Positions 1,947 through 27,150 of a DNA stretch of 32,000 nt are shown here, piece by piece. Made by a program: the position numbers and the translations under genes. Within the stretch, counting starts at the first letter, position 1. Each line of letters starts with the position of its first letter. The notes beneath the pieces are model-generated. The model made no database searches, was not told the origin of the DNA, and was given only the letters and a program-made list of their open reading frames with translations. The DNA is taken from positions 97,330 to 129,329 of the forward strand of contig NZ_JBHFNP010000022.1 in the NCBI RefSeq assembly GCF_041929235.1, written 5' to 3'. The stretch is from Microseira sp. BLCC-F43 (GTDB lineage: Bacteria; Cyanobacteriota; Cyanobacteriia; Cyanobacteriales; Aerosakkonemataceae).

Positions 1947-3632
1947 ATGAAACAACCCCGGATCTTCGAGATGCTAAATTTGATAAAAAATCAGAAGCTT
2001 ATTATGACAAGCTGGCAAATTTTGCTCGTTATTATATTAGTCTTAGGGTTGTTTTTCCGATTCGCGAATCTCGACCGTAAAGTCTACTGGAGCGATGAAA
2101 CTTTTACTTCCATAAGAGTTTCTGGCTACACAGCAGAAGCATATACAAATAAAATTTTGGAGGGGAATGAATTAGGAATAAAAGACTTTCACAAATATCA
2201 GCATCTCAATTCAGAAAAGAGTTTGCCTGACTTAGTTAATGGATTGGCAGTAGAAGAACCCCAAAACCCACCCCTTTATTTTATGATGGTGCGATTTTGG
2301 GTGCAGTGGTTTGGTGAATCAGCGGCAATTACAAGAAGTTTTTCTGCCGCAATTAGTTTGCTATCATTGCCTTGCATTTATTGGCTATGCCACGAATTAT
2401 TTGGATTACCTTTAGCTGGTGCGATCGCAATGGCACTACTAGCAAGTTCACCATTGCACGTCTTGTACGCACAGGAAGCGCGACCCCATAGTTTGTGGAC
2501 GCTGACAATTTTACTATCCGGTGCAGCACTGCTGCGAGCAATTCGCCTGGGAACAAAGCTCAACTGGAGTATTTATGCAGTCGCTCTAGCTTTGAGCCTT
2601 TATACTTATATGTTTTCGGCGTTGGTGGCGATTGGACATGGCATTTATGTAGTTGTAAACTCAGGCTTTCGATTCACCAAAACAGTTAAGGATTACTTAA
2701 TTGCTTCTCTGGCGGGTATTTTACTTTTCTCACCTTGGATATTCGCTATTGTAACCAGCGTTTCAAAAACCCAGGAAACAACTAGCTGGACTAAGTTAAA
2801 AGTGTCTTTAATATTGCTAATAAGGACGTGGCTGCTTAACCTGAGTCGGGTTTTTATTGATTTAGATTATAACTTCCTGACGCGCAATGATTTGATGTAT
2901 TTAGTCATCCCATTAGTGGCAATTTTGTTCTGTTATTCTATTTATTTTTTAGTGAAGATCGCGCCGATAAAAATTTGGTTATTTATTTTAACGTTGATGG
3001 GAGTGACGGCGATGGCTTTAATCCTGCCGGATTTAATTGTAGGCGGGAGACGCTCTAGTGTAGTGCGATATGTCATCCCCTGTTATTTGGGAATTCAGTT
3101 AGCGATCGCATACCTTTTCGCTGCTAAGATATCTATGTCTTTTCAAATCTGGCAACAGAGGTTATGGCGGATTGCTATGGTCGCACTGATTTCGGGTGGA
3201 ATTGTCTCTTGTGCAGTCAGTTTTCAAGCACAAAGTTGGTGGAATAAATACAACAGCTTCCATATACCCGATGTCGCTAGCATTATTAATCAATCCGAAC
3301 GCCCACTTGTTCTCTGGTCGGGTGTACCTCCTCTAGATTTAACTTATTTACTAAATCCAAATGTAAAACTTCAGCCAGTGATGCGTCAAACCATTGATCT
3401 GCCCGATGGGGAGAGAGTCCAAAAACATTCATTAAAACCTATTGCTGAAGGATTCAGCGATATTTTTGCCTTCGGTCATAACGACCCGAATTCCCACCTA
3501 GTTCAAGAATTTTTGCAGCAACAGCAGTATAAGCTAAAAGAAGTTCATCGCTCGAAGCGATGGATAGATCCGGTTTATGAAACGAAACTCGTACTTTGGA
3601 GGGTGTCAAAGGCACAAAAAACCAATAAATAA
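1947..3632 (+). CDS. GT-C fold membrane glycosyltransferase (GT39 / ArnT-PMT-like)
   Basis: Polytopic membrane protein. First-loop motif YWSDETF (DE motif of ArnT/PMT-type enzymes). ATG at 1947 is preferred over the TTG at 1905, which overlaps the upstream gene. Confidence 0.7.
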   Translation: MKQPRIFEMLNLIKNQKLIMTSWQILLVIILVLGLFFRFANLDRKVYWSDETFTSIRVSGYTAEAYTNKILEGNELGIKDFHKYQHLNSEKSLPDLVNGLAVEEPQNPPLYFMMVRFWVQWFGESAAITRSFSAAISLLSLPCIYWLCHELFGLPLAGAIAMALLASSPLHVLYAQEARPHSLWTLTILLSGAALLRAIRLGTKLNWSIYAVALALSLYTYMFSALVAIGHGIYVVVNSGFRFTKTVKDYLIASLAGILLFSPWIFAIVTSVSKTQETTSWTKLKVSLILLIRTWLLNLSRVFIDLDYNFLTRNDLMYLVIPLVAILFCYSIYFLVKIAPIKIWLFILTLMGVTAMALILPDLIVGGRRSSVVRYVIPCYLGIQLAIAYLFAAKISMSFQIWQQRLWRIAMVALISGGIVSCAVSFQAQSWWNKYNSFHIPDVASIINQSERPLVLWSGVPPLDLTYLLNPNVKLQPVMRQTIDLPDGERVQKHSLKPIAEGFSDIFAFGHNDPNSHLVQEFLQQQQYKLKEVHRSKRWIDPVYETKLVLWRVSKAQKTNK

Positions 3633-3676
3633 ATTGGCGATAATTCAAAATATAGTTATTAGCAGCAGGTAAAGAC

Positions 3677-4687
3677 ATGCTAGACCGCTTACAAGAAATC
3701 AAAACACCCTCGCTGAAAAACCAGCGCATTGCCGTTTTGCTACCTTGTCGCAACGAGGGTTTAACTATTGCCCAAGTAGTGGCAGGTTTTCAAGCGGCGC
3801 TACCAGAGGCGAAAATCTACGTGTACGATAACCGCTCCACCGATAATACAGCAGAACAGGCAGCGGCGGCGGGTGCGATCGTGCGGTACGAACGCATTCC
3901 AGGTAAAGGAAACGTCGTTCGGCGAATGTTTGCCGATATCGAGGCGGATATCTACGTCATGGCAGATGGGGACAACACCTACGAAGCAGCGGCAGTCCGC
4001 AGACTGATCCAGTTTTTGTTAGTTGAACGACTGGACATGGTAGTAGGTGCGAGACGCGAGATAGCCAAAGATAGCGAAGCTTACCGTCCCGGTCACCGCT
4101 TCGGTAATATATTTCTCAAAACCTGCGTTCAATTACTATTTGGAGCGCGCCTAGTCGATATGCTTTCTGGATATCGGGTCTTCTCCCGTCGATACGTCAA
4201 ATCTTTTCCCGCACTATCGAATGGGTTCGAGATTGAAACCGAGTTTACAGTACACGCCCTTGAACTGAAAATGCCGTTTATTGAAGAACCGACGTTATAT
4301 GGTTCGCGTCCGCCCGGTTCAACTAGCAAACTCAGGACATTTCAAGATGGTTGGCGAGTTTTAGGGACGGCAATTTTGTTATTTAAAGAAGCGCGACCTT
4401 TTCTATTTTTTGGCATTATCTTTCTGCTGCTGGCAGCATTTTCCATCCTTTTAGGTATTCCCGTTGTCGAAGATTTTTTCCAAACTGGATTAGTACCGCG
4501 ATTTCCCACTGCAATTTTAGCAGCGTCCACAATGTTGCTCGCTTTTCTCAGCCTCACCTGCGGGATGATTTTAGATTCAGTAGCGCGCGGGCGGCGAGAA
4601 ACCAAACGCATGGTTTATCTTTCCTATCCCGCACCCGAAGCGGGGATTTATGAAAGTGCAACTGATGAAAGTCATCCCCTCAATTAA
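3677..4687 (+). CDS. GT2 family glycosyltransferase with two C-terminal TM helices (GtrB/ArnC/polyprenyl-phosphate sugar synthase-like)
   Basis: N-terminal IAVLLPCRNEG, then DNRSTDNT and ADGD (DxD) motifs. C-terminal helices FLFFGIIFLLLAAFSILLGIPVV and FPTAILAASTMLLAFLSLTCGMIL. Confidence 0.85.
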   Translation: MLDRLQEIKTPSLKNQRIAVLLPCRNEGLTIAQVVAGFQAALPEAKIYVYDNRSTDNTAEQAAAAGAIVRYERIPGKGNVVRRMFADIEADIYVMADGDNTYEAAAVRRLIQFLLVERLDMVVGARREIAKDSEAYRPGHRFGNIFLKTCVQLLFGARLVDMLSGYRVFSRRYVKSFPALSNGFEIETEFTVHALELKMPFIEEPTLYGSRPPGSTSKLRTFQDGWRVLGTAILLFKEARPFLFFGIIFLLLAAFSILLGIPVVEDFFQTGLVPRFPTAILAASTMLLAFLSLTCGMILDSVARGRRETKRMVYLSYPAPEAGIYESATDESHPLN

Positions 4688-6350: not shown

Positions 6351-6683
6351 ATGAATAACGTATTAATTCTGATAGCTCTAGTTCCATTCTCGGTTGTCCT
6401 GAATACAATGGGTCAGATTTTACTAAAATCAGGCTCGGGTCAAGGAATGGTAAATCTCAACGTGTTCTTGGGACTTGTTGCTTATGCTGTCAGTACTGTT
6501 TCCTATATTTTAATCTTAAAAAGACTGAACGTATCGGTGGCTTATCCTTTGGTTTTTGGTTTGACGATTGTTGCCACAACTTTGGCGGGATCCAATATTT
6601 TAAAGGAGTCAGTGACGGTGCAACAGTGGATGGGTGTCGGGTTGGTAATTAGCGGAATTTGTGCAATTAGTTTTGGTAAATAA
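6351..6683 (+). CDS. Small 4-TM SMR/EamA-half protein (ArnE/ArnF-like candidate flippase subunit)
   Basis: 110 aa with four evenly spaced hydrophobic segments. Size and topology match SMR/ArnE-F. Starts 22 nt after the upstream gene. Confidence 0.6.
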   Translation: MNNVLILIALVPFSVVLNTMGQILLKSGSGQGMVNLNVFLGLVAYAVSTVSYILILKRLNVSVAYPLVFGLTIVATTLAGSNILKESVTVQQWMGVGLVISGICAISFGK

Positions 6684-6687
6684 GATA

Positions 6688-6734
6688 GGGGAATTGGTAA
6701 TTGGAAATTGGTAATGGCTAATTGCTAATTGCTT
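6688..6734. repeat. Heptamer tandem repeats (GGAATTG/GTAATTG/GCTAATT)
   Basis: Direct reading: ggggaattggtaattggaaattggtaatggctaattgctaattgctt. Confidence 0.9.
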
Positions 6735-6853
6735 AATAAACAGTGTGGAAAATTCAGGCATGATTCCTGAAAAAACTTATGGTAGTTTGAATAAATTGAA
6801 TAAGATACCAGGGTGAATAGGTTAAGAAACTGATTAATTTGAAAGGAAGAATA

Positions 6854-7855: not shown

Positions 7856-7888
7856 CTTGAGCAGGTGAGCAATGCTAGTTATAAACTC

Positions 7889-7959
7889 GCTAATTGCTAA
7901 TTGCTAATTGCTAATACAGCATTTCTCCTAACACTAGCCATTAGCCATTAGCCATTAGC
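7889..7959. repeat. Heptamer arrays GCTAATT x3-4 and GCCATTA x3
   Basis: Direct reading. Confidence 0.9.
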
Positions 7960-7994: not shown

Positions 7995-8069
7995 GGTAAT
8001 TGGTAATTGGATTCATTCGTGCTGGAACCGTGACAATTACCAATTACCAATTACCCATTACCTATTACC
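7995..8069. repeat. Inverted GGTAATT / AATTACC heptamer arrays forming a long hairpin between convergent fabH and the ABC gene
   Basis: GGTAATTGGTAATT (7995-8008) is complementary to AATTACCAATTACC in 8034-8049. The loop is ~23 nt. Confidence 0.8.
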
Positions 8070-9970
8070 TAATTCCCCAACATTTGCAACTTGTACAAAC
8101 TAGCATAAAGTCCGCCTTGTTGTAGCAATTCCTGATGACTACCCGACTCGATTAATTGCCCCCGCTTTAATACTAAAATCCGATCTACATTGCGAATAGT
8201 AGAAAGGCGGTGGGCAATAATAATTGCCGTGCGTCCTACTAAAAGTCGGTCTAAAGCATCTTGAATTAATGCTTCCGTTCGCACATCTAAACTCGCGGTT
8301 GCTTCATCTAGCACTAAAATTCTCGGAGCGCGGATCGCAGCACGAGCAAAGGCTAAAAGTTGTTTTTGACCGCCAGATAAATTCGTTCCCCTTTCTCTAA
8401 GTTGGGTGTCGTAACCTTGGGGTAATTGTTCGATAAATTGGGCGACATTTGTGTTTTCTGCAGCAGCAACAACTTGCTCAAAAGCATAAGTTTCCCCCAA
8501 GGTTATGTTACTTTTCACATCTCCAGCAAACAGAAATCCGTCTTGCAGAATAACGCCCATATAGCGGCGTAATTCCGTCTGCGGTACGTCTCGGATATCG
8601 ACGCCATCCAAAAGAATCCGACCTTTTGTAGGTTCGTAGAGGCGGCATAATAGCCGGATTATAGAACTTTTACCAGCACCCGTGGGGCCAACTAATGCGA
8701 CTTTTTCACCCGGATGAATCGTAAAGTCTAAGTCTTGAATAACGTATTCGTCTTGTTTGTAAGCAAACCAAACATGTTCAAATTTGATTTCGCCTGGTAA
8801 TGGGTAATGGGTAATTGGTAATTGGTAATTCTCATCTGTGCCTCTGCTCTCCCGCTGTCGCGATCCTCTGCTATCCATCTCGAATGGTAATGATTTAGGA
8901 TTTTCGGGGTCGCGAATTTCGATCGGTTCGTTGAGGATGTCAGCTATGCGTTCTACGGCGGTGAATCCTGCTTGAATTGAGGTGAATTTTTCGGCAAATT
9001 GTCTTAAGGGGTCGAAGAGACGTTGGGCATATAAAATAAAGGCAGATAGAGTACCGAAACTGAGTTTATCTTGCAGAATCTGAAGTCCACCTAACCATAA
9101 AACGCCTGCGATCGCTACCAACGAAATCCACTCCAGCGTGGCAGATACCGCTGAGTCGTGAAAGATGGTTGCATCTACTTCTTTGATATAGCGTTTGTTG
9201 ATAGTTCGGAACAGTTCGGCATTGAACTTTTCCCGCCGGAATAGCTGAACGACATTAATCCCCAAAATATTTTCTTGCAGCGTCGCGTTAAGCGCAGAAA
9301 GTTCTTCCCTGGCAAAATAATTCGCTTGGCGGTACTGCTGTTGAAAATAAATAATTACACCCGTTACGGGAATCAGCATTAGTACTAGCATTGTCGCCAG
9401 TTGCCATTGCAGGGAAAACATAGCGATCGCAATCACCAAAATCGAAAACAAATCGCTCACAATACCGATAGCACCCGTGGTAAACACATCTCCCAACGCT
9501 TCCACATCGCTAGTGAGGCGGGTAATCAATTTTCCTACTGGAGTCCGGTCAAAAAATCTGACCGCCAAAGAGGTAACGTGGTCGAACAAATCCTCGCGAA
9601 TGGCGTTGGTAATTTGTTGTCCCACCTTCTGCACGGTATAACTTTGGGTAGATACAAGCACCAACCGCCCTAATACCGTTAACAGCAGTAAACCGGCTAA
9701 AATATTTAACCCGGTTGATAAATCTCTACCTTGGAGAATCGACCAAGTTTGCTCTTTGCGAATTAAAGAAATTGCCTGTCCGATGATTAGGGGTTGAATT
9801 GCCCCAGATACCGCCACCGGCACCAATAATATCATCGAAAGCAAAAGCAGGCGTCCGCTACGACGCGCATAAGGGATTAACCGCAGGAATAAACGCCAGT
9901 CGCTTTCCCGCCGTTGGCGCTGCGATCGCTTATAATCGAGTTCTTCTGTCTCCCGCGATGACCCCGTCAT
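8069..9970 (-). CDS. ABC exporter, fused permease and ATP-binding domains (MsbA/MdlB-like)
   Basis: Six-TM N-terminal half. Walker A GPTGAGKSS, signature LSGGQKQ, Walker B ILVLDEATA. Confidence 0.9.
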   Translation of the reverse strand: MTGSSRETEELDYKRSQRQRRESDWRLFLRLIPYARRSGRLLLLSMILLVPVAVSGAIQPLIIGQAISLIRKEQTWSILQGRDLSTGLNILAGLLLLTVLGRLVLVSTQSYTVQKVGQQITNAIREDLFDHVTSLAVRFFDRTPVGKLITRLTSDVEALGDVFTTGAIGIVSDLFSILVIAIAMFSLQWQLATMLVLMLIPVTGVIIYFQQQYRQANYFAREELSALNATLQENILGINVVQLFRREKFNAELFRTINKRYIKEVDATIFHDSAVSATLEWISLVAIAGVLWLGGLQILQDKLSFGTLSAFILYAQRLFDPLRQFAEKFTSIQAGFTAVERIADILNEPIEIRDPENPKSLPFEMDSRGSRQRESRGTDENYQLPITHYPLPGEIKFEHVWFAYKQDEYVIQDLDFTIHPGEKVALVGPTGAGKSSIIRLLCRLYEPTKGRILLDGVDIRDVPQTELRRYMGVILQDGFLFAGDVKSNITLGETYAFEQVVAAAENTNVAQFIEQLPQGYDTQLRERGTNLSGGQKQLLAFARAAIRAPRILVLDEATASLDVRTEALIQDALDRLLVGRTAIIIAHRLSTIRNVDRILVLKRGQLIESGSHQELLQQGGLYASLYKLQMLGN

Positions 9971-10428: not shown

Positions 10429-11688
10429 ATGGCGAGAAATTGGTTGCGCGTCAATCATGTAGCAAATACGATCCAAATTTCCTGGCAACGCGGACAATCA
10501 ACCCCTCGATCTGCTCCAGAAGTAGCATTTCAACACCCTTTTGACGAGCAAGCACTGACAGATTTGCGGTGGTATTTAGAACAATACCTGCGCTTTCCCT
10601 ACGGACTTGAACCCCAAAAAGCAGAACAGATAGAACAGAAATTGCAAGCTTGGGGACAGCAACTATTTGACATCATCTTCCGCAGCAGCGAGGAAGCGCG
10701 GACATTTTTTCAGGAGGCGACGCGAGAAGGGCTAGATCGATGCGAACTCAGTATTATTTCGGATGAACCGGAGATACTTAATTTACCTGGGGAATTGCTG
10801 TAATCGCCGGATTACCAATTTCTCGCGCCGTTGCTGGCTGGAACTTACCGCAGTCTCAGCAGTTATGCCGTGCGGGCAGAAATGGGGGCAATGTCGGATG
10901 AGAAGTTAAATATTTTACTCGTTATCGCGCGACCTTATGGTGAGCAGGATATTAATTTTCAAACGATTGCCCGTCCGGTGCTAGAAGCGCTGCAACCGAT
11001 TCGGCAGCAGGTGAATCTCAAGGTATTGCGTCCCCCTAGTTTAAAGCAGTTTGAGGCAGAACTTCAGGCGCATAAAGGGTTTTATCAAATCGTCCATTTT
11101 GACGGACATGGGGATTTTGAAGCGAATAGCAAAACCGTTCAAACTCAATATGGAAAATTGGGACAAGGGATTTTAGTCTTTGAAGATGCAGAAGGCAACC
11201 CGGAAATTGTCACCGCTAGGGAGATTGCCCAATATTTAACCGATTGTCGCGTCCCGATTTTTCTGCTGAATGCTTGCAAATCGGGACAAGCGGGAGAAGA
11301 ACCCTTTTCATCGGTGGCGGGACAGTTGGTGAAATTGGGTGCCAAAGGCGTGGTAGCAATGGCTTATTCTGTCTACGCGGAAGGGGCGAAACACTTCATG
11401 GCACGCCTGTATGGGGAATTGGTGCGGGGGGAAAGCATCGCCAGTGCTGTAGCGGCGGGGCGGAAATCCATGTCCATCCAGAAGCTGCGCCCCAGTCCCA
11501 AGGGCGATTTACCGTTGCAAGATTGGCTGGTGCCGGTATTGTATCAGCAAGAACCTTGCACGCCGTTTACTCCTAACACTGCACCGCCCAGCTTTTTAGA
11601 CTTAATCAACGCCGCAGAAAACGCCCAATCCAAAATCGGCGTTCCCAGGCAGGAGCCAGGGAACGAGTTAAAATCCATCTTGGTTGAT
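10429..11688 (+). pseudogene. 5' part of a CHAT (caspase-like peptidase)-STAND-TPR gene; contains an in-frame TAA at 10801-10803 and is truncated by an IS insertion
   Basis: ORFs 10429..10803 and 10831..11751 are both in frame 1, separated by a single stop. CHAT His/Cys dyad context IVHFDGHG and FLLNACKSG. The N-terminal DLRWYLEQYL region is typical of this family. The last ~20 codons of the second ORF read into the IS left end. Confidence 0.75.
11641..11664. repeat. Small palindromic insert GTTCCCAGGCaggaGCCAGGGAAC inside the CHAT-NTPase linker (translated VPRQEPGN)
   Basis: 10-bp stem with one mismatch and a 4-nt loop. Related to the GCCAGGGAA/TTCCCTGGC palindrome at 10265-10286. Confidence 0.6.
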
Positions 11689-13040
11689 TTACCGAAAATT
11701 TTGGGTTTAAAGCCCCGCACTTCAGGGCGGCTTTTAGAATCTATGCTATAATCTTATCAGAGGATAAAACGATAAGAATGATTGTCTACGAAAGCAAATT
11801 AGAAGGAGAACAAAACCAGTATGAAAAGCTCGACGGGGCTATTCGTACTGGTCGTTTTGTTCGTAATTCTATTATTCGTGCTTGGATGGATAATCTAATC
11901 AAAAGTCGTAATGATGCTTATGCCTACTGTAAAACTCTAGGGGATAATCCTAAATTCCCTTGGGCTAAACAATTAAACTCTCAAGCCAGACAAGCTCATG
12001 CTGAGAGGGCTTGGGCTTCAATTGAGCGTTTTTATCATAATTGTAGAGCAAAAACACAAGGGAAAAAAGGATACCCGAAGTTTAAAAAATATCAAGTTAG
12101 AGACTCGGTTGAATACAAAGTAAGCGGTTGGAAATTATCAGAAGACCTCCGCTACTTAACATTCACCGATGGATTCAAAGCTGGAACTTTTAAACTTTGG
12201 GGAAGTAGAAACCTTCACTATTATCAACTAGAACAAATTAAGAGAGTTAGAGTTGTTAGAAGACATGATGGTTATTATGCACAATTTATAATCGACCATA
12301 AACGGGAGGAAAGTAAAGAATTAACGGGTAGGCAAATTGGCTTAGACGTTGGGTTAAATCATTTCTATACTGATAGTTTTGGTCAGAAAGTTGATAATCC
12401 TAGATTTCTGAGAAAAGACGAACATAGAATCAAAAAACTACAGCGTCGTCTCTCTAAGACAGAAAAAGGTAGTAAAAATAGAGCCAAAGCGAGAACTAAA
12501 TTAGGTAGAGCGCATCTCAAGGTATCACGCAGACGTAACGACTGGGTTTGTAAATTAGCTCAGCACGTCATACGGTTTAACGACTTAGTAGCAGTTGAGA
12601 ACCTAAAAGTGCGTAATATGATTAAAAACCACTGTCTAGCTAAATCAATATCTGATGCTGCATGGTATCGTTTTCGAGAGTGGTTAGAGTATTTTGGCGT
12701 TGTGTATGGAGTTCCAGTAATAACTGTTAATCCAAAATATACAAGTCAGAATTGCTCTAATTGCGGACAGATAGTGGTTAAAACACTAAGTACCCGTACC
12801 CATAAATGTCCTGATTGTGGTTATGTGGCGGACAGGGACGAAAATGCAGCATTGAATATTTTAAAAGCAGCCTTGAAAGAATGGGCAAATACCGTGGGGC
12901 GCACGGAATTTGAAGTCTCTGGAGAGATTCCCCTCTGTTTGAATCTGGAAACAGAAACAAATAAGGGAACTCGAAGAAAGAGAAAACCTAAGAAGTGATT
13001 CTTAGAATCTCCGCGCGTTCACGCCGGAGAGTACGTCAAC
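11689..13040 (+). mobile_element. TnpB-only IS200/IS605-family (IS1341-like) element; no tnpA
   Basis: Candidate target/TAM TTGAT at 11684-11688. Related imperfect subterminal hairpins at 11709-11734 (LE) and 13008-13030 (RE). Shared 9-mer TTAGAATCT at 11734-11742 and 13002-13010. RE ends ..GTACGTCAAC. The region appears AT-richer by eye than the flanks. Boundaries are uncertain by a few nt. Confidence 0.7.
11778..12998 (+). CDS. tnpB: RNA-guided endonuclease TnpB (IS605 OrfB family)
   Basis: RuvC-I IGLDVGLNHF, RuvC-II VAVENLKVRNM, zinc finger CSNCG...HKCPDCG, RuvC-III DRDENAALNI. All catalytic residues are present. Confidence 0.9.
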   Translation: MIVYESKLEGEQNQYEKLDGAIRTGRFVRNSIIRAWMDNLIKSRNDAYAYCKTLGDNPKFPWAKQLNSQARQAHAERAWASIERFYHNCRAKTQGKKGYPKFKKYQVRDSVEYKVSGWKLSEDLRYLTFTDGFKAGTFKLWGSRNLHYYQLEQIKRVRVVRRHDGYYAQFIIDHKREESKELTGRQIGLDVGLNHFYTDSFGQKVDNPRFLRKDEHRIKKLQRRLSKTEKGSKNRAKARTKLGRAHLKVSRRRNDWVCKLAQHVIRFNDLVAVENLKVRNMIKNHCLAKSISDAAWYRFREWLEYFGVVYGVPVITVNPKYTSQNCSNCGQIVVKTLSTRTHKCPDCGYVADRDENAALNILKAALKEWANTVGRTEFEVSGEIPLCLNLETETNKGTRRKRKPKK

Positions 13041-13056
13041 GGAAGTCAGCGCCTAT
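12850..13056 (+). ncRNA. Predicted omega-RNA (reRNA) scaffold overlapping the tnpB 3' end and RE, plus a ~16-nt flank-derived guide (13041-13056 GGAAGTCAGCGCCTAT)
   Basis: By analogy with characterised TnpB systems, the scaffold spans the 3' end of tnpB and the RE hairpin (13008-13030). The 5' boundary is not determinable by eye. Confidence 0.4.
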
Positions 13057-15156
13057 GGCTTTATCGGGCGAGGTTACGACATTTTGCGCTTAGAACGCGC
13101 TTTTCGCCAAAATTATGTGGTGCTGTTGCAGGGGATGGGCGGGGTTGGCAAAACCGAGTTAGTAGGGGGATTTGCTCGCTGGTTGGATGACACCCAGGGA
13201 CGCACGGGGGGCATTTTCTTCACTAGCTTTGAGCGCGGTGCGGGGTTGAGTCAGGTGGTGAATCAAATTGGCAGAAGCTTGGGGGGTGAGAAATTCGCCC
13301 AGTTAAAGCCAGAACAACAGCAGGCGGTGGTGCGACAATACTTGCAAACCCATCCTTGTCTGCTGATTTGGGATAACTTTGAACCCGTCAATGGGTTTCC
13401 CGCCGGAAATCTGCCATTGTTACCCGCCGCCGAAAGAGAAGAATTGAAGCGGTTTCTCAAAGAATTGCGCGGGGGGCAAACTTGGGTACTAATTACCAGT
13501 CGGCGGGAAGAAGGTTGGTTAGATTGCGGTTACGCGCTGCTGAGTTTGAAGGGACTGGTAAAACAGGATGGGGAAGAGTTAGCGGCGAAGATTCTGCAAT
13601 CAGCGGAGATAAACCGGGCGAAACTGCCAAAAGAATATCTGGAGTTGCTGAAACTATTGGGGGGACATCCCCTGTCCTTGCGGGTGGTACTGCCTCACCT
13701 GAAAACCCAGACACCCGTGCAGTTAATCGAGGCATTGCGGCGGGGATTGGATACGTTCAAGGGTGCAGAGGAGGAAGGTAGAGAGAAATCTTTGCTGGTG
13801 TCGCTGGATTATTCGTTTGCGAAGTTGTCGGAACGGGCGCGGCAGCATTTGCCGTTTTTAGCGCTATTTTCTGAGCGAGTGGATGCAGGTTTCCTCCATC
13901 TTTTGTCGGAAAGTTCTGATAATCAGTTTGGACAGGCATATTGGGCGGTGTTTGGAGAAAACTTGCAGAAGCCCGATTGGATGGGATTGCTCAAGGAAGC
14001 CGCCGCCGCAGGGATTGTAGAACATTTGATGGGAACTATCTACAAAATTCACCCAGCACTGCCTTGGTATTTGCGACAACAGTTAGATACAAAAGGTTCG
14101 CAGGAGGTAATCAATAGCCTAGAAAAAAAGTTGCTACTTTTCTACGCAGAGTTGGCAGATATCTACCATGAGGAACTCATCAGCAATGCGGAATTGGCAA
14201 CCTTTGCGCTGCGAGTAGAAGAGCCGAACCTATTGCAGCATTTACGACTGGCAGAACAGCAGCAGGATTGGGGTAATGCCAAATTTATTCTGACAGCCTT
14301 GGCAGAGGTATATACACGATGGGGGCGCAAACCAGAATTTAAGTCCCTGCGAGAACGGGCGCTGAACCAAATTGGTATCCACTTGGCACAAGCAAAGGCA
14401 AAGGGACGAAATGCCTTTGATTTCTGGATTTATCTGCGGGGAGTAGATGCAAATGAAGCTTTTAAAAGTGCCGACTTGGAAACAGCAAGAGCCTTTTATC
14501 AAGAAATTCTGGATGAATTGACAGCTTTAAATGACCCCTCCGTCAATGGCAATATCGCCTCTTTTAATCACAATCTTGGCTATATTGCCCAAAGGCAACG
14601 ACGGTTTGACGATGCGATCGCTTTTTACAATAAAGCTCTCCAAATTAAAGAAGATGCGGGGGCTTTCTACAGTGCTGCTAGCGACTATCACCATCTAGGA
14701 ATGGTAGCCGAAGATCAACGGCGGTTTGACGATGCGATCGCTTTTTACAATAAATATCTCCAAATTTATGAAGCTGCGGGGGATGCTTACATGGCTGCAT
14801 ATCCCTGTAAGCTTTTAGGAGAAATTGCCAAAGATCAAGGAGATTTTGAGACTGCTGTTGCCTATTTCCAAAAAGCATTTGAAGCCTTAAGTTCAGCAAA
14901 TGATTGGCACAACGCATCTTTAACCCTAGTTGCATGGGGCGAAACCCTGGAAGCCCAATCAAATTGGACTGAAGCCGCGAAAATTTACATCCACGGCTTG
15001 GTCATCGAGGTTAAGCATAATAAAGAGTGGATTGGCTGGTATCTCAAAAATTTAAGGCGAATGCTCAAACAGTTGGGAGACAGCCAATTTGCCACAATTT
15101 GGCGCGAGGTAATAGGCGAAGAATTGCCAGAAGAATGGCGTTCAGTTATTCAATAA
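13042..15156 (+). pseudogene. 3' part of the same gene: NB-ARC-like STAND NTPase plus TPR array
   Basis: Same frame as the CHAT part. FIGRGYDILRLERAF lead-in, Walker A GMGGVGKT, Walker B CLLIWDNFE, LITSR and GGHPLSL motifs, then ~40-aa TPR-like repeats. The first in-frame start after the IS is a TTG at 13084. Confidence 0.75.
14596..14780 (+). repeat. Near-identical 120-nt-spaced intragenic duplication of a TPR unit (QRRFDDAIAFYNKxLQI)
   Basis: 14603-14634 and 14723-14754 are identical over 32 nt. The flanking sequence is similar. Confidence 0.8.
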
Positions 15157-16756: not shown

Positions 16757-17551
16757 ATGCCATCCCCATTTCCCGGCATGAACCCTTATTTAGAAGCTCC
16801 TCAATTATGGCCCGATGTCCATCACCGACTCATTACAGCCATTGCTGACTTGTTAGCCCCTCAATTGGAACCTAAATATATTGTCGCAATTGAACGCCGA
16901 ATTTATGAAGTTATAGACGAAACACCTCTATTAGTAGGACTGCCCGATGTCATGGTGCAGCGTTCTACAACTACTCCAGAGCAAACAAATACTAATGTCG
17001 CTACTTTATCACCTCCAGCCCAACCAATTACAGTAACAGTTCCCATACCCGAAACTGTGGGACAAGGTTATTTAGAAATCCGCCTAGTGGGAAGCAATCA
17101 AGTCATCACCGCTATAGAAATTCTCTCGCCTGTGAACAAGCGACCGGGGAAAGGGCGGGAAACTTACGAAGCAAAACGGCAAAATGTTCTGACTAGCTTA
17201 ACCCATTTAGTAGAAATTGATTTACTGCGCCAGTGGCAACCAATGCCAATTTTAGAAACCAATATTAAAAGCCATTATCGCATTTTAGTTAGCCGCAGAC
17301 AACGCCGACCGCTAGCAGATTTATATGCGTTTAATTTACAAAATTCAATTCCAACATTTCCCTTACCTTTATTACCAGGCGATGCCGAACCTATCATCGA
17401 TTTGAAAGCATTATTAGATTCAATTTACGACCGCGCCGTTTATCGCTTGCAAATCAACTATAACAACGAACCCATACCCGCCTTGACCGAAGCAGATGCA
17501 ACCTGGGCAGATCCACTATTAAAAGAACAGGGAAACAGAATTGCAGATTGA
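16757..17551 (+). CDS. DUF4058-like protein (PD-(D/E)XK nuclease-fold candidate)
   Basis: Characteristic N-terminus MPSPFPGMNPYLE..LWPDVHHRLI. PDVMV, IEILSPVNK and VEIDLL motifs resemble the D...ExK arrangement of Uma2-type proteins. Confidence 0.7.
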   Translation: MPSPFPGMNPYLEAPQLWPDVHHRLITAIADLLAPQLEPKYIVAIERRIYEVIDETPLLVGLPDVMVQRSTTTPEQTNTNVATLSPPAQPITVTVPIPETVGQGYLEIRLVGSNQVITAIEILSPVNKRPGKGRETYEAKRQNVLTSLTHLVEIDLLRQWQPMPILETNIKSHYRILVSRRQRRPLADLYAFNLQNSIPTFPLPLLPGDAEPIIDLKALLDSIYDRAVYRLQINYNNEPIPALTEADATWADPLLKEQGNRIAD

Positions 17552-17692
17552 AGAAAATTGCAGATTTTAGATCTCAGATGGCAGATTTAATATCAAATCA
17601 GTTAACCTCTCTTTTCTTTCTCTGCGTCCTCTGCGCCTGGAGCGGTTCATTCAGATAGCTCAAATCTAAAACCTGCAATCTTCAATCTAAAA

Positions 17693-18337
17693 TCAAACCG
17701 CAGATAGAGATTGTTCTCGCAATTGTTCAACCAATGAGTGCAGATTATAACTATCGAGACGATAACTCAAAGGATTGGCAATTAATCGCGCCGTACTTTG
17801 ATACAAAACCTCAATTTCAACCAAACCATTTTCGCGCAAAGTTTTACCCGTGGAAACTAAGTCTACAATCGCTTCCGACATGCCGGTAATTGGCCCTAAT
17901 TCCACCGAGCCGTATAAAGGTACAATCTCTACAGGCATATCCAAATTTTGAAAGTATTCGCGGGCGCAGTTAACAAACTTAGACGCAACTCTACCGTGGG
18001 GCGGCAATTCCAACGCCGATCGATATGGACTTGATTGCTTCACCGCTACCGACAGGCGACAGCTACCAAACCCCAAATCAGCTAAATGGGCAACTTTAGG
18101 TTGTTTTTCCCGCAACACGTCGTAACCGACAATTCCCAGTTGCGCTTGTCCGTATTCTACATAAACCGGGACGTCATGAGTCCGGACTAGCAAAGCTTTG
18201 GCGGTATTGGTGGGGTCGGTAATTTGCAGTTGGCGATTGGAGGAGTCGAGAAAGGCGCTAAAGTCTAGTCCTACCGCAGAAAGCAGGCGAATACTATCTT
18301 TAAGTAGGGCACCTTTTGGTAATGCAACAGTCAGCAT
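17693..18337 (-). CDS. hisG: ATP phosphoribosyltransferase, short form
   Basis: [20 protein letters not shown]-terminus. The 214-aa length and overall sequence are typical of HisG-S. Confidence 0.9.
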
Positions 18338-18340
18338 CAG

Positions 18341-18379
18341 GATTTTAGATTTGAGATTTTAGATTTTTGATTTTAGATT
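18341..18379. repeat. TAGATTT-type heptamers in the hisG / response-regulator divergent region
   Basis: Direct reading. Confidence 0.85.
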
Positions 18380-18410
18380 AAATTTGAAGCGAAAATCTAA
18401 AACGATCGAG

Positions 18411-19106
18411 ATGCAGATTCTTTTGGTTGACGATGAAGTTGAACTAACCGATCCCCTGAGTCGCGTCTTGACTCGCGAGGGTTATCGGGTTGATGTCGCT
18501 TATGATGGCACATCTGGTACTCAAATGGCGTTGCAAGGCGATTATGACTTGCTGATTTTAGATTGGATGCTACCGCAGATGTCCGGGTTAGAGATTTGTC
18601 AGAGAGTCCGATCGCACGGACTATCCACACCCGTCCTGTTTCTCACCGCTAAAGATACTTTAGACGATCGCGTGCAAGGTTTAGACGCCGGTGCAGATGA
18701 TTATCTGATCAAACCCTTTGAACTGCGGGAATTACTAGCGCGAGTCAGGGCGCTATTGCGGCGAAAAACTGTCTCAGACTCAGAAAAATGGCAAAAACGC
18801 CTGCGCGTTGGCGATTTAGAACTAGATTGCGACAACCAGCTTGCCTATCGTCGCTTACGCCCCATCGAGTTATCGGAAAAAGAAACCCAACTACTGGAAT
18901 ATTTTATGCGCCATCCCGGTCAATTATTAACCCACGCCCAAATTCACGAACATTTGTGGGGCGAAGGCGAACAACCCAGCAGCAACGTTTTAGCAGCATT
19001 AATTCGCCTGCTGCGCCGCAAAATCGAGGGGAAAAATGAAAGTCAGCTAATTCATACAGTTTATGGTAAAGGTTATCGCTTTGGAGAGGTAATGGGTAAT
19101 GGGTAA
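18411..19106 (+). CDS. OmpR/PhoB-type response regulator
   Basis: REC domain (ILLVDDE, LLILDWMLP, LTAKD) plus a winged-helix C-terminus (VYGKGYRF). ATG at 18411 is preferred over the upstream alternative start. Confidence 0.88.
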   Translation: MQILLVDDEVELTDPLSRVLTREGYRVDVAYDGTSGTQMALQGDYDLLILDWMLPQMSGLEICQRVRSHGLSTPVLFLTAKDTLDDRVQGLDAGADDYLIKPFELRELLARVRALLRRKTVSDSEKWQKRLRVGDLELDCDNQLAYRRLRPIELSEKETQLLEYFMRHPGQLLTHAQIHEHLWGEGEQPSSNVLAALIRLLRRKIEGKNESQLIHTVYGKGYRFGEVMGNG

Positions 19107-19281
19107 TTGCTAATTGCCATCAGACCCTGAATTACTCCCTTCTCTCTCCAAAATTACCTACCTCTCCTTTTCTCTTACCTCTGCGTTCTCTGCGTCTCTG
19201 CGTTTCAATAAAAGGATTAGATAGAGTAACCCATGCGCATTTTTATCGTCCAAACTGCCATTGATGGAAATAGAGATCAGA

Positions 19282-21285: not shown

Positions 21286-21384
21286 TTCCTCAATTACTGG
21301 ATTTTAAATCTACGTATTATTATAAATCATCGGTTGACGCTGGTAATAGGTAATGGGTAATGGGTAATTGTCCGTTAAATTGCC

Positions 21385-21641: not shown

Positions 21642-22613
21642 TTAGCAATTAGCAATTAGCAAGGTATTAATTGTATTTTGCATCTTTTCTCGCAATCTTT
21701 GTGCTTGAACGTAATCATTTGAACGATTGCTATCTAAATCAACTGCTGTTTCTGAGTCTGGTTGAATAAAGTAACGCAGGCGAGTTTTCATTGCCCAAAC
21801 TCCCATTGATGGAAATAGGATAAAGAAAATCATTAAAGGGGAAATTGGCAAGAAAGGCAAGTTTAATCTTTTAGCCAATTTCCGCAAATGCACGGTGAAA
21901 GGATGTAAGTATTCATTCCCAATGCAAACAATTGGTAAAATAGGAATTTGATAGATATTGCTCAAGCGAATAAAACTCGGATGAAATGTTTCTAGTTGAT
22001 AGCGGTTTTGCCAAGCTTTACCGGGTCCGCGCAAACCTTCTGGGGCGTAGAGTAAAATGGTTTTTTGCGCTAATGCTGCTGCAAATTCCTCTTTTTCTGC
22101 CCTGACTGCACCCAAAACCTGCGACCATCCAGGTGGTAACCACCAAATCACCCAAGGATGGTCAAATAATGATACTCCAGCTAGGGGTTGCGTTGCCCAT
22201 CCTCGTGCTTTTCCTAACAAATAAGCCAATATCATAAAATCCCAGGGAAAACACATCCCGGCATGGTTCATCGCCACAATTAACGGACCGTTTTGGGGTA
22301 AATTTTCCATTTGTTGCAGTTCGGCGCGATAATAATATTGGGCAATCGGCGCTAAAACTTCTTCCCGGAAAGCTTGCTGATAATTTGGCTCGAATTTAGC
22401 CGTTTCTTGGCGCGGTAAACGACAACCAAGGCGCAACCAACGGATTAACAATGCCACATAAAAACCACCGGGAATCAGAAATAGCGGATATTCCAGCCAA
22501 GTCCAACCATCGGGGTCGCTATGATAATGTTGCCAGTGGCGGTTAAATAAAATCAACCACCCTGGAGGATACCACAGGCAAAATCTATCAAACCAGCTAA
22601 ACCGATAGGACAT
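21642..22613 (-). CDS. Lysophospholipid/glycerol-3-phosphate acyltransferase family (PlsC-like) membrane protein
   Basis: NHAGMCFPWD acyltransferase-type His motif, PEGLRG motif, hydrophobic N-terminal region. Confidence 0.6.
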   Translation of the reverse strand: MSYRFSWFDRFCLWYPPGWLILFNRHWQHYHSDPDGWTWLEYPLFLIPGGFYVALLIRWLRLGCRLPRQETAKFEPNYQQAFREEVLAPIAQYYYRAELQQMENLPQNGPLIVAMNHAGMCFPWDFMILAYLLGKARGWATQPLAGVSLFDHPWVIWWLPPGWSQVLGAVRAEKEEFAAALAQKTILLYAPEGLRGPGKAWQNRYQLETFHPSFIRLSNIYQIPILPIVCIGNEYLHPFTVHLRKLAKRLNLPFLPISPLMIFFILFPSMGVWAMKTRLRYFIQPDSETAVDLDSNRSNDYVQAQRLREKMQNTINTLLIANC

Positions 22614-22620
22614 AGGGAAT

Positions 22621-22745
22621 TTCAGATTTTAGATTTTAGATTTTAGATTTGGGATTTGGGATTGAATACAATCTGCCATCTAGAATCCGAAATTGGCAAT
22701 CGATCTAATTACCTATTACCCATTACCCATTACCCATTACCATTC
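22621..22745. repeat. TAGATTT/GGGATTT heptamers (22621-22663) and CCATTAC heptamers (22707-22745)
   Basis: Direct reading. Confidence 0.85.
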
Positions 22746-23108: not shown

Positions 23109-24308
23109 TTACCCCAAAACTCCTGCCTCTGCCTGATAGCGAATATTAGCTTGTTTTAAGCGTTTGAGAGCTTCGCCTAAGCGATCGCACTCTGCAATCA
23201 AGCTTACCCGCACGTACCCCTCACCGGCAACGCCAAAGGCATTCCCAGGGGTCACCACCACACCCGTCTGCTGCAAAACCGACAGAGCAAAATCCGTCGA
23301 TCCGACACCGGGAGGCGTTGGTACCCATACATACATCGTAGCCTTGGGTTTGGGAATGCTCCAACCAAGTTGTGCCAATCCATCAATTAAAAAATCCCGC
23401 CGCGTGCGATAGCGTTGTTGCACCTGTTGCAAATAACTATCGGGTAACTGAAGTGCGGTTTCCGCCGCGCATTGCAATGCGGCAAATAAACCGTAATCTA
23501 AATTAGTTTTTAACGTCCGCAACCCTTGCACGATGCGGCGGTTACCCACAACAAAACCCACGCGCCACCCTGCCATATTGTAAGTTTTGGACATCGTATG
23601 AAATTCCACGCCAATATCTTTGGCACCTGGAATTTCTAGCAAGCTGGTAGGTTGATAACCATCAAATGCCAATTCTGCGTAACACAAGTCGTGAACGAGT
23701 AATATTTCATACTTGCGGGCAAAGGCGACAATTTCCTCAAAAAATTCGCGGGGGGCGGTGGCGGCGGTAGGATTGCTGGGATAGTTGAAATAGAGTATCT
23801 TGGCTTGTTGGGCAACTTCGTCGGGAATTGCCGCTAAATCGATTACCCAGTCGTTTTCCGGTTTTAAAATTAAGCTGTGAACCTTGCCGCCAGCGATCGC
23901 CGGACCGCGAAAATGGGGAGGATAGGCAGGAGTTGGCACTAAAATTACATCCCCTGGGTTGATATAAGCAAGTGCCAGATGGGTTAAACCTTCTTTAGAA
24001 CCCAATAAAGGCAACGCTTCGCTATCCGGATCGAGTTCAACCTCGTAGCGACGCTTGTACCAATTAGTTATAGCGCGGCGGAAGCTAGCGGTGCCTTCAA
24101 ACGGCGGATAACCGTGATTGGCGGGGTTTTTTAGCGCCGCGATCGCTGCCTCGATCACTGGTTCCGGTGCCGATCCATCCGGGTTGCCCATCCCCAAATC
24201 TATTAAATCAAGTCCTTGCTCGCGGGCGCGAGCTTTCAATTCGTCCAAACGGGCAAATACGTAAGGCGGTAGTGCTTGCAGTCGCTCAGCGGGACTAATC
24301 CAATCCAT
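23109..24308 (-). CDS. Class I/II PLP-dependent aminotransferase (AspC/AlaA-like)
   Basis: LPPYVFARLDELK N-terminus, GNPDG, NYPSNPT, and PLP-lysine region SKTYNMAGWRVG. Confidence 0.88.
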   Translation of the reverse strand: MDWISPAERLQALPPYVFARLDELKARAREQGLDLIDLGMGNPDGSAPEPVIEAAIAALKNPANHGYPPFEGTASFRRAITNWYKRRYEVELDPDSEALPLLGSKEGLTHLALAYINPGDVILVPTPAYPPHFRGPAIAGGKVHSLILKPENDWVIDLAAIPDEVAQQAKILYFNYPSNPTAATAPREFFEEIVAFARKYEILLVHDLCYAELAFDGYQPTSLLEIPGAKDIGVEFHTMSKTYNMAGWRVGFVVGNRRIVQGLRTLKTNLDYGLFAALQCAAETALQLPDSYLQQVQQRYRTRRDFLIDGLAQLGWSIPKPKATMYVWVPTPPGVGSTDFALSVLQQTGVVVTPGNAFGVAGEGYVRVSLIAECDRLGEALKRLKQANIRYQAEAGVLG

Positions 24309-24314
24309 TTTATA

Positions 24315-24390
24315 TTTCAGATTTCAGATTTTAGATTTTAGATTGAAACATGGGTAATTGGTAATTGGTAATTGGTAATTGCTAATTGGT
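24315..24390. repeat. CAGATTT/TAGATTT and GGTAATT heptamer arrays
   Basis: Direct reading. Confidence 0.85.
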
Positions 24391-24394
24391 CAGG

Positions 24395-24475
24395 ACTTAG
24401 GCAACTTCTATATGTAGGGTGCTCTCTTCGCAGTAACGCACCATTTCCACTATATCTGGAGTTGGCTGCCTAAGT
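24395..24475. repeat. ~80-nt imperfect palindromic element (ACTTAGGCA ... TGCCTAAGT arms enclosing a GTAGGGTGC..GCACC palindrome), MITE-like
   Basis: 9-bp terminal inverted repeat at 24395-24403 / 24467-24475. Inner GGTGC/GCACC at 24418-24442. Confidence 0.55.
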
Positions 24476-26134: not shown

Positions 26135-27052
26135 CTAATCCTTAAGCGAAATTGAATAAACCCAACTAGCGTAATTCGGATCGCGGTTTTCTGTAATCGC
26201 TGTCAGTTTTTCCCGCAGCTTTTCCGTAATCGGACGGTTATTAGAGAATTCGTACCCTTCAATCCGTTTTACCGGCGTTATTTTTGCCGCCGTCCCGCTT
26301 AAGAAGACCTCATCAGCGATGTACAATTCTGATTTATCCACTGGTCTTTCTATCGTTTTAATTCCCATATCTTTAGCCAGGGTCAGGATACTATCGCGCG
26401 TAATTCCTTCTAAGATATCCTGTTCGAATCCTGGCGTAATCAGTTGTCCGTTTCGCACCAAAAAGATATTCATTCCCGAAGCTTCGCTGACTTTCCCTTG
26501 GGAATTCATTAAAATTGCTTCATCGAATCCCGATTCTACCGCTTCAGTTTTAGCTAAAGAAGAAGTAATGTAAGCGCCGCTGACTTTTCCTCGTAGCGGT
26601 AAACTGCGGTCTTCTTGACGATACCAGGAACTGATGCGACAACTCACCCCTTCTGCCGCTAAATAATCTCCTAACTCTAACCCATACACAAAAAAGTCTT
26701 TTTCGATTTTATGCAATCTGGGGGCAATTCCCAAATCCGACGTATAAACAAAAGGTCTAATATAAAAAGACGTTTTCGGCTGATTTTTTTTCACCCATGT
26801 TACTATAATTTCTTCGATTTTTTCCGCTGGTAAATCGTACCGCAGCAATCTAGCGCTATCGCTTAATCGTTTGCAATGCCGGTCTAATCTAAACAGTAAA
26901 ATATTGTCTTTATTTTGCGGTTCTGGAATGCCTCGCAATCCGCCAAACGCTGCTGTTCCGTAATGTAAAGCATGGGTAGCGATCGATATTTTAGCGTCTT
27001 CAAAATTCACAAATTGATTTTGAAAGTAAGCGATTGGCAGGAAATTGTACAT
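26135..27052 (-). CDS. ilvE: Branched-chain amino acid aminotransferase
   Basis: 305 aa. N-terminal FVNFEDAKISIATHALHYGTAAFGGLRG and the overall class IV aminotransferase pattern. Confidence 0.88.
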   Translation of the reverse strand: MYNFLPIAYFQNQFVNFEDAKISIATHALHYGTAAFGGLRGIPEPQNKDNILLFRLDRHCKRLSDSARLLRYDLPAEKIEEIIVTWVKKNQPKTSFYIRPFVYTSDLGIAPRLHKIEKDFFVYGLELGDYLAAEGVSCRISSWYRQEDRSLPLRGKVSGAYITSSLAKTEAVESGFDEAILMNSQGKVSEASGMNIFLVRNGQLITPGFEQDILEGITRDSILTLAKDMGIKTIERPVDKSELYIADEVFLSGTAAKITPVKRIEGYEFSNNRPITEKLREKLTAITENRDPNYASWVYSISLKD

Positions 27053-27053
27053 G

Positions 27054-27150
27054 ATTGCAGATTTCTGATTTGAGAATAATTGCAGATTTCTGATTTTATA
27101 TTGCAGATTTTTTACTTGAAAATCTGCAATCTGAAATCTAAAATCTAAAA
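27054..27150. repeat. GCAGATT/AATCTGC heptamer-derived repeats including the hairpin TTGCAGATTTT..AAAATCTGCAA
   Basis: Direct reading, between the ilvE start and the ycf51 stop. Confidence 0.8.

Follow-up and report, generated by a model that had tools for sequence, protein, structure and literature searches.

A probable TnpB-only IS200/IS605 insertion sequence with IS608-type ends in a cyanobacterial CHAT-STAND-TPR gene

The window, the whole 32,000-nt stretch of DNA analysed here, holds a CHAT-STAND-TPR (CHAT-NTPase-TPR) gene that is split by an insertion 3′ of TTAC in its coding strand (Table 1). The 5′ part of the host gene ends in the codons tta c(cg), which hold the TTAC target. At about 38%, the GC content of the inserted element is lower than that of the bordering host DNA (about 55%). 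The ATG of tnpB follows TTAC after just 85 nt, and the element holds no tnpA, as the preliminary description had recognised in calling it a non-autonomous, TnpB-only element of IS200/IS605 type with tnpB intact. The termini (C..A) form no terminal inverted repeats, and the target is not duplicated. We conclude that positions 11693-13039 are very probably a non-autonomous TnpB-only IS200/IS605 insertion sequence with the cis-acting ends of IS608. ISfinder places TnpB-only elements of this family in its IS1341 group. The element is an ordinary, well-preserved one of a kind already known, and it belongs to a lineage widespread in filamentous cyanobacteria; a relative on a plasmid of Nostoc PCC 7120 matches it in architecture.

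Table 1. Features of the split host gene and of the inserted element, in window coordinates.
Feature	Position	Strand	Details
Host gene 5′ part, CHAT protease domain	10429..11692	+	Pfam CHAT, E=4e-19
TTAC, host-derived target; TnpA left cleavage site and predicted TnpB TAM	11689..11692	+	
Insertion sequence	11693..13039	+	1347 nt
Left-end signals: AAAG and imperfect palindrome	11709..11734	+	
AAAG, candidate DNA guide G_L	11709-11712	+	invariant in 30 aligned copies
TGCTATAAT, extended -10-like box, candidate promoter for tnpB-omega RNA	11744..11752	+	read from sequence
tnpB, 406 aa	11778..12998	+	Pfam OrfB_IS605 and Cas12f1-like_TNB; NCBIfam guided_TnpB
Predicted omega RNA scaffold	12892..13039	+	covariation, fold energy, dS
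Right-end signals	13005..13039	+	
GAAT, candidate G_R	13005-13008	+	
Imperfect palindrome with bulged C13014 (hairpin 13008-13030)	13009-13029	+	covaries in other copies
TCAA, where the right end is cleaved and the element stops	13036-13039	+	after a 6-nt linker
Predicted 16-nt guide CGGAAGTCAGCGCCTA, host DNA past the right end, reached by read-through	13040..13055	+	inferred
Host gene 3′ part, STAND/NB-ARC-type NTPase and TPR repeats	13040..15156	+	Pfam nSTAND1, NB-ARC, TPR_12

The bases that follow TTAC and TCAA are both C (C11693 and C13040), which leaves the junction of the window copy ambiguous by one base, so that only other copies resolve it. Homology with about 90 cyanobacterial copies extends from TTACC (11689) through GTCAA (13039). 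When 80 family loci are compared with the window by blastn, matches begin at 11688/89 and end at 13039/40. A second copy, at another locus of one metagenome, is 93.6% identical, with homology covering exactly 11689-13039; the flanks of the second metagenome copy read ..atacc/TTAC and GTCAA/acaaag (slashes mark junctions). Across 72 distinct sites the base after GTCAA varies (a in 24, c in 22, g in 6 and t in 20). TTAC occurs at all 53 distinct insertion sites of a search whose pattern itself demanded TTACC; unconstrained blastn shows TTAC too.

The left junction is fixed by the empty site. At the DNA level, the homologue L081 carries it as GGTTGATTTAC/CGGAAGTTAGCGCC, starting CGGAAGT after the junction, 93% identical over 124 nt and gapless. 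Intact homologues of the host protein, about 1200-1480 aa long, are continuous across the junction, and all those in the junction alignment follow the gapless pattern V[DGN]LP[EDK]VSAYGF (for example ..VDLPEVSAYGF..). In the empty site and the protein homologues alike, TTAC/CGGAAG is joined with nothing gained or lost. Since both keep the Leu-Pro codons, TTAC is retained by the host, and excising 11693-13039 (1347 nt) restores ..KSILVDLPEVSAYGF.., as in these homologues and the DNA empty site. Excision would nevertheless not restore the host gene, because its 5′ part carries an in-frame TAA in translation at 10801-10803. No empty site from the same species was recovered; in all the population samples found, the insertion seems to be fixed.

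These comparisons bear on the ISDra2-like model of the preliminary description, in which the TAM is TTGAT (11684-11688), the element runs from 11689 to 13040 or 13041, and the guide is GGAAGTCAGCGCCTAT (13041-13056). TTGAT is present at those positions and directly precedes the conserved block, and deleting 11689-13041 is in frame: both halves of the host gene do share a reading frame, and 1353 is divisible by 3. As a conserved 5′ motif or TAM, however, TTGAT fails, preceding TTAC at one of the 53 distinct sites, the window's own, whereas the closest second copy has ..caatacc there. The 1353-nt deletion yields ..KSILVDEVSAYGF.. without Leu-Pro, against the junction-alignment homologues and the DNA empty site, and the copies end at 13039 (..GTCAA) with base 13040 variable among them. 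Comparison with other copies was the description's own proposed refutation; in those copies both the 5′ motif and the right terminus prove to be different, and the TTGAT model is thereby refuted. We consider it almost certainly wrong, to be rescued only if TnpB required TTGATTTAC. That a guide can be predicted from the right flank still holds, with its start moved by one base to 13040.

A target or TAM longer than TTAC, such as TTTAC or A-N-T-TTAC, in which the T of TTGAT would aid recognition, strikes us as unlikely. T precedes TTAC at 30 of the 53 sites, compared with 28% T in the background, and this position is otherwise unconserved; A stands at -3 in 25 of 53. The remaining 23 sites have another base at -1, which makes T a preference at most, and the bias could come from AT-rich intergenic targets.

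Between these limits, the left and right ends carry subterminal signals of the IS608 type. IS608 uses TTAC as its target (PMC3201880; PMC8612924), and its G_L is AAAG (PMC3201880). In the window family, TTAC lies 19-20 nt from the left hairpin. The inner stem of the left palindrome pairs 11715-11720 with 11725-11730, with one A.G mismatch in its subfamily; compensatory changes occur in 4 of its 6 pairs, and 91% of cells are paired, against 26-53% in shifted controls. GAAT, the candidate G_R of the right end, is reportedly the G_R of IS608, as Barabas et al. are said to have described in 2008. Both hairpins listed in the preliminary description (left, 11709-11734; right, 13008-13030) exist, and both covary in other copies. 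Such single-strand-type ends, TTAC/TCAA with subterminal hairpins after AAAG/GAAT, speak against an IS607-type element moved by a serine recombinase, a reading to which we give next to no credence: TnpB also occurs in IS607 elements, but the IS607_TnpB model matches more weakly (116 bits) than IS200_TnpB (227 bits), and a recombinase gene is absent nearby.

The TnpB protein scores 282 bits with the NCBIfam guided_TnpB model, against a cut-off of 100. Its RuvC residues GLD190VG, VE274NL and DRD354EN align to D191, E278 and D361 of ISDra2 TnpB (8h1j/8exa), and its zinc finger keeps both cysteine pairs, CSNC at residue 326 (C326xxC) and CPDC at residue 344 (C344xxC), bearing out the earlier claim that the RuvC residues and zinc finger are kept. 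Against seven relatives, dN/dS for tnpB is 0.06-0.12, with 0.12 against the closest copy. By these alignments and rates, the RuvC triad of TnpB is intact and the protein is under purifying selection.

Comparison of copies shows the last ~150 nt of the element to form a conserved RNA structure with covarying pairs, part of which lies within the 3′ end of tnpB. The predicted scaffold comprises helices at 12892-12906, 12916-19/12980-83, 12924-32/12965-72, 12936-41/12958-63, 12944-55, 12988-13005 (whose loop contains the tnpB stop codon) and 13008-13030, with a weak long-range pairing of 12837-40 and 13034-37. Over 38 copies, the scaffold's 45 pairs are 96% paired, where shifted controls reach 37-42%; compensatory changes are seen at 30 of the pairs. 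Folded as a single sequence, the scaffold reaches -56 kcal/mol (z=-4.9), and an Rfam search returned no family matching it. Synonymous divergence is 0-0.27 in the overlapped codons versus 0.28-1.5 upstream, a collapse in dS that is as expected of an omega RNA. The length of the predicted guide, 16 nt, is taken from ISDra2 (PMC8612924). Transcription may start from the -10-like box, which sits 26 nt 5′ of the tnpB ATG; TGCTAnAAT is found at the corresponding place in many copies, a promoter consensus scan that needs a -35 box made no call there, and 11748 A>C alters the box in one population variant.

How might the element move? We probed for tnpA with the IS608 protein (the sequence of PDB 2a6m); the positive control came up at E=8e-14, but neither the window nor the surroundings of 89 related loci, out to about 3 kb, gave a match. 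Elements of the TnpB-only subgroup are expected to lack a Y1 TnpA. Some three quarters of tnpB genes have no tnpA as a neighbour and are believed to rely on movement in trans (PMC10055086). We assume likewise that this element would be mobilised in trans, with steps modelled on those of IS608, ISDra2 and the Geobacillus IS. In such a scheme, a Y1 TnpA made from a gene at some other place would recognise TTAC and TCAA via base contacts with AAAG and GAAT, cut behind each of them and release the top strand as a circle; joining of the flanks would give TTAC/CGGAAGTCAGCGCC. Processing of the tnpB transcript would yield an omega RNA extending past the right end into the guide; TnpB and omega RNA would then cut the TTAC-flanked donor joint, and recombination with a sister copy would restore the element.

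The same anatomy could belong to an immobile fossil, with no cognate TnpA in the genome and with TnpB and its RNA unmade or roleless here. We hold this to be a real if distinctly lesser possibility. The absence of tnpA from the window and the vicinity of its 89 relatives is compatible with it, as are the fixation of the insertion in all samples found, a host gene that is already a pseudogene through its TAA, and the mutated -10 box of one variant. Yet the open reading frame is intact with all catalytic residues, purifying selection is seen even against the closest copy, and hairpins, cleavage sites and RNA helices are undamaged; the many tnpB genes thought to move without an adjacent tnpA (PMC10055086) weigh on the same side. 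A patch of 13 sites, identical in two copies of one metagenome, also suggests that exchange between copies is still going on. If IS608-type TnpA proved to be wholly absent from the host genomes, spread or persistence of the lineage would have to proceed without classical TnpA transposition, which we think very improbable; in that case, TnpB-triggered recombination between copies is a possible route, and the patch could be its trace.

Beyond annotation, the significance of this locus is small: one cyanobacterial TnpB element now has exact ends, a TTAC target motif and a predicted guide of 16 nt. Its widespread lineage gains a predicted omega RNA scaffold backed by covariation, which could serve those wanting a native compact TTAC-TAM nuclease for filamentous cyanobacteria. 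The locus also carries a caution of method, in that an in-frame deletion and a familiar adjoining motif are insufficient to place IS200/IS605 ends; placing them requires other copies and the empty site.

Among known systems, the ends are closest to those of IS608 of Helicobacter pylori, which encodes both a Y1 TnpA and TnpB. Like IS608, the window element inserts 3′ of TTAC, has AAAG 5′ of a left hairpin whose foot lies about 19-20 nt from TTAC, closes in TCAA 10 nt past the foot of the right hairpin, and has neither inverted terminal repeats nor a target duplication (PMC3201880). Unlike IS608, it is without tnpA and half the size of a two-gene element, its hairpin sequences are CCGCAC../CTCCGCGCG.., and its host is a filamentous cyanobacterium. 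The protein resembles that of ISDra2 of Deinococcus radiodurans (406 versus 408 aa, RuvC triad and zinc finger, match at E=7e-40). The ISDra2 guide RNA comes from the tnpB 3′ end together with the right end, and some 16 nt of flank act as the guide (PMC8612924), an arrangement also predicted here; ISDra2 differs in using TTGAT, where the window family uses TTAC, and in also having tnpA. Also among the closest are the TnpB-only IS200/IS605 elements of the IS1341 group and the tnpA-less Geobacillus IS (Meers et al.), with a lone tnpB between conserved left and right ends. One report (PMC4615843) describes non-coding RNAs at the 3′ end of IS1341-type tnpB genes. For TnpB-only elements, mobilisation is presumed to occur in trans, with TnpB proposed to cut the donor joint and so to keep the element in place (PMC10055086). 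From these the window element shows no difference in kind; it represents a cyanobacterial lineage with TTAC/TCAA ends.

The ends of the insertion were proposed, in a preliminary description, to be definable from other copies, and such copies fixed both of them. We compared window positions 11400–13400 by blastn with 80 cyanobacterial loci whose TnpB is 61–91% identical, drawn from a scan in which each species was represented by one genome. Homology runs from 11688/11689 to 13039/13040, and every copy, in register, has TTACC at its start and ..GAG(N)A(C/T)GTCAA at its end. The base following GTCAA varies over 72 distinct sites (a in 24, c in 22, g in 6 and t in 20), which places the right end at A13039. 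Because C follows both TTAC and TCAA in the window, this copy by itself allows two cuts, one base apart, and it is the variation after TCAA in other copies that decides between them. Bases 5′ of TTAC are not conserved, the sole biases being T at −1 (30/53 sites) and A at −3 (25/53). TTGAT, previously taken for the TAM, lies five bases off and, among 53 distinct sites, is found at that of the window alone; the right terminus had also been set one to two bases too far, at 13040 or 13041. On these alignments we place the element at 11693–13039, a length of 1347 nt or 449 codons.

Its GC content is ~38%, against ~55% in the adjoining host sequence. The flanking ORFs are, as previously suggested, two halves of a single gene, with CHAT upstream and a STAND/NB-ARC NTPase with TPR downstream by Pfam, and intact homologues are continuous over the junction. 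After joining the halves in silico at TTAC/C, we searched a protein database and recovered hundreds of intact homologues of ~1200–1480 aa, up to 81% identical. All intact homologues in the junction alignment read V[DGN]LP[EDK]VSAYGF across the junction, gap-free, as in the homologue P0002 (KSILVDLPEVSAYGFIGRDYD). The contig encoding P0002 has an empty site, AAAATCCATTCTGGTTGATTTAC/CGGAAGTTAGCGCCTATGG, which aligns gap-free with the joined window flanks at 93% identity over 124 nt. TTAC (codons tta-c/cg, Leu-Pro) is therefore host sequence. The excision envisaged before, of 11689–13041, would be in frame but deletes this Leu-Pro, giving a product wrong by six bases. An exact 32-mer of the empty site had no match in a metagenome contig collection; neither had the window's own 35-nt right end, so the collection does not hold this population and its null says nothing on empty sites.

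The host CHAT gene also contains an in-frame TAA at 10801–10803, between ..LPGELL and SPDYQFLA.., common to all population variants. The gene is thus a pseudogene independently of the insertion, and excision would not restore it. PADLOC returned only generic TPR and weak CHAT matches for the host protein and so assigns it to no known defence system.

Features of the element, of inserts in related copies and of intergenic repeats (L numbers denote loci or contigs with related copies or host homologues)
Feature	Position	Strand	Remark
TTAC target	11689–92		followed by 16-nt linker
AAAG	11709–12		5′ of imperfect left hairpin extending to 11734
tnpB ORF	11778–12998	+	406 aa
GAAT	13005–08		5′ of right hairpin
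Right hairpin	13009–13029		bulged C; followed by AGTACG
TCAA	13036–39		last bases of element
MITE-like inserts	window-equivalent ~12884		L040, L042, L047–L049, L055, L056, L069, L074, L078
MITE-like inserts	window-equivalent ~12020		L058, L070, L074, L077, L078
GC-rich hairpin insert	L033 3291–3394; L051 3287–3339; L072 ~3400–3470
Tandem heptamers	6674–6749, 7867–7928, 8031–8083, 8781–8842, 17547–17697, 18327–18383, 19080–19127, 21334–21381, 22609–22742, 24306–24399, 27044–27152	both

The protein matches OrfB_IS605 (E=2e-27) and Cas12f1-like_TNB (E=4e-25) in Pfam. Among NCBIfam models it scores 282 bits with guided_TnpB (cut-off 100), 227 bits with IS200_TnpB and 116 bits with IS607_TnpB. Among solved structures it aligns with ISDra2 TnpB (8h1j, 8exa; E=7e-40), whose catalytic residues D191, E278 and D361 align with D190 of GLDVG, E274 of VENL and D354 of DRDEN. 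Together with the zinc-finger pairs CSNC (326) and CPDC (344), this bears out the earlier account of the protein. Against seven relatives, tnpB has a dN/dS of 0.06–0.12; the TnpB is intact and under purifying selection. The element contains no tnpA, as had been stated: a probe of IS608 TnpA, identical to PDB 2a6m, found none in the window, nor in ~600 kb of sequence from 89 cyanobacterial loci, and a Thermus tnpA was detected at E=8e-14 as a positive control. Other large ORFs in the window are housekeeping and signalling genes only, by Pfam.

Upstream of tnpB, a promoter and terminator scan found no promoter, since it requires a −35 box; it also found no terminator. Read by eye, an extended −10-like box, TGCTATAAT (11744–11752), is a candidate promoter that may drive a tnpB–omega RNA transcript. 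A population variant on contig L083 has A>C at window-equivalent 11748, the second position of the TATAAT box 5′ of tnpB. Just 5′ of the start codon lies a conserved inverted repeat, CTTATC...GATAAG (11753–11776), which recurs as TTATCG...CGATAA in most copies and may form a hairpin in the 5′ UTR or belong to the left end.

To the 3′ side, the element encodes a conserved RNA structure. From an alignment of 38 non-redundant copies over their final 240 nt, RNAalifold predicted 45 pairs, and compensatory changes occur at 30 of these. Standard pairs form in 96.0% of cells in the predicted structure and in 37–42% with partners shifted; 272 cells are changed on both sides, compared with ~75 in shuffles, and none of 500 shuffles attained the observed values. 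Window positions 12885–13039 (155 nt) alone fold to the same shape (−56 kcal/mol, z=−4.9). The helices span 12892–13030, with the tnpB stop codon in the loop of the 12988–13005 helix. The dS values are 0.28–1.5 upstream of 12892 and 0–0.27 in the codons overlapping the structure, a drop that supports the structure independently and is what a functional RNA overlapping the reading frame leaves behind. Searched across the window at gathering thresholds, Rfam gave no match, and over 11600–13150 at E≤10 it gave only a chance lncRNA match, so the element's RNA has no Rfam family. The ISDra2 guide consists of ~16 nt of flanking sequence (PMC8612924). By analogy, the predicted guide is CGGAAGTCAGCGCCTA (13040–13055), which starts one base upstream of the register first proposed (13041–13056). 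GACG (12837–12840), in the DRDEN codons, may also pair at long range with CGTC (13034–13037) beside the terminal TCAA. This pairing is kept in 97% of cells, mostly via G–U changes, and might correspond to a guide-RNA pseudoknot.

The insertion is present in every sample holding the locus, and looking up the exact TnpB and its 99–100% variants yielded only the same insertion in other samples. Through a 94% TnpB variant we found a second copy, 93.6% identical, at another locus of one metagenome that also holds the insertion. Homology between the two is exactly 11689–13039, and the second copy is flanked by ..caatacc/TTAC and GTCAA/acaaagc. Population variants of the insertion differ from one another at 16 sites, all of them within the element; 4.9–20 kb of flank is invariant. 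Thirteen of the 16 sites form one patch at window-equivalent 12770–12868 (L087, JGI 3300037309; L089, same sample), identical to the second copy in the same metagenome; either gene conversion between the copies or chimeric assembly accounts for it.

Related copies in Lyngbya PCC 8106 and Limnoraphis have inverted-repeat MITE-like inserts of ~107–120 nt within tnpB (AACGGATTAA...TTAATCCGTT); the insert at ~12884 brings stop codons into the TnpB tail and parts the ORF from the RNA scaffold. A distinct GC-rich hairpin insert of ~50–100 nt (AAGCGGTGCGACC...GCGCACCAAG) occurs in several relatives at window-equivalent ~12069 of tnpB. L011 contains a head-to-tail pair of diverged family members (1558–2900 and 2911–4262), spaced by 10 nt and TTAC only (..GTCAA/gcagtcaaaa/TTAC/C..), and L016 has a second TTACC 10 nt upstream of the left end. 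Intergenic regions of the window itself are packed with tandem heptamers of GGTAATT/TAATTGG and AGATTTT types, resembling the short tandemly repeated sequences of filamentous cyanobacteria. HIP1-like GCGATCGC is also frequent.

Of 53 copies, 30 have a linker of 16 nt between TTAC and AAAG, and 12 have one of 15 nt. In the left hairpin, compensatory changes are seen at four of six inner pairs, and 91% of cells are paired, versus 26–53% in shifted controls. A relative on Nostoc PCC 7120 plasmid gamma, 62.6% identical, has the same layout. By analogy with IS608, ISDra2 and the Geobacillus elements, a Y1 TnpA acting in trans would excise the top strand and rejoin TTAC to CGGAAG; TnpB and omega RNA would then cut the TTAC-flanked joint, and recombination with a sister copy would restore the element.

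IS608 is cleaved 3′ of a TTAC placed 19 nt ahead of the foot of the left hairpin, and its TCAA follows the foot of the right hairpin by 10 nt; each cleavage site is recognised by a tetranucleotide 5′ of the hairpin foot, which on the left is AAAG (PMC3201880). The ISDra2 target is TTGAT (PMC8612924). The preliminary description was right in its general idea but not in TAM, right terminus, guide register or excision product, and it had invoked IS608 and ISDra2 together. We conclude that the element is real and well preserved but an ordinary TnpB-only member of the IS200/IS605 family, with ends of IS608 type. Judged by sequence, IS608 is the fitting paradigm, sharing the TTAC target, left AAAG and right TCAA, and ISDra2, with its TTGAT target, is not.
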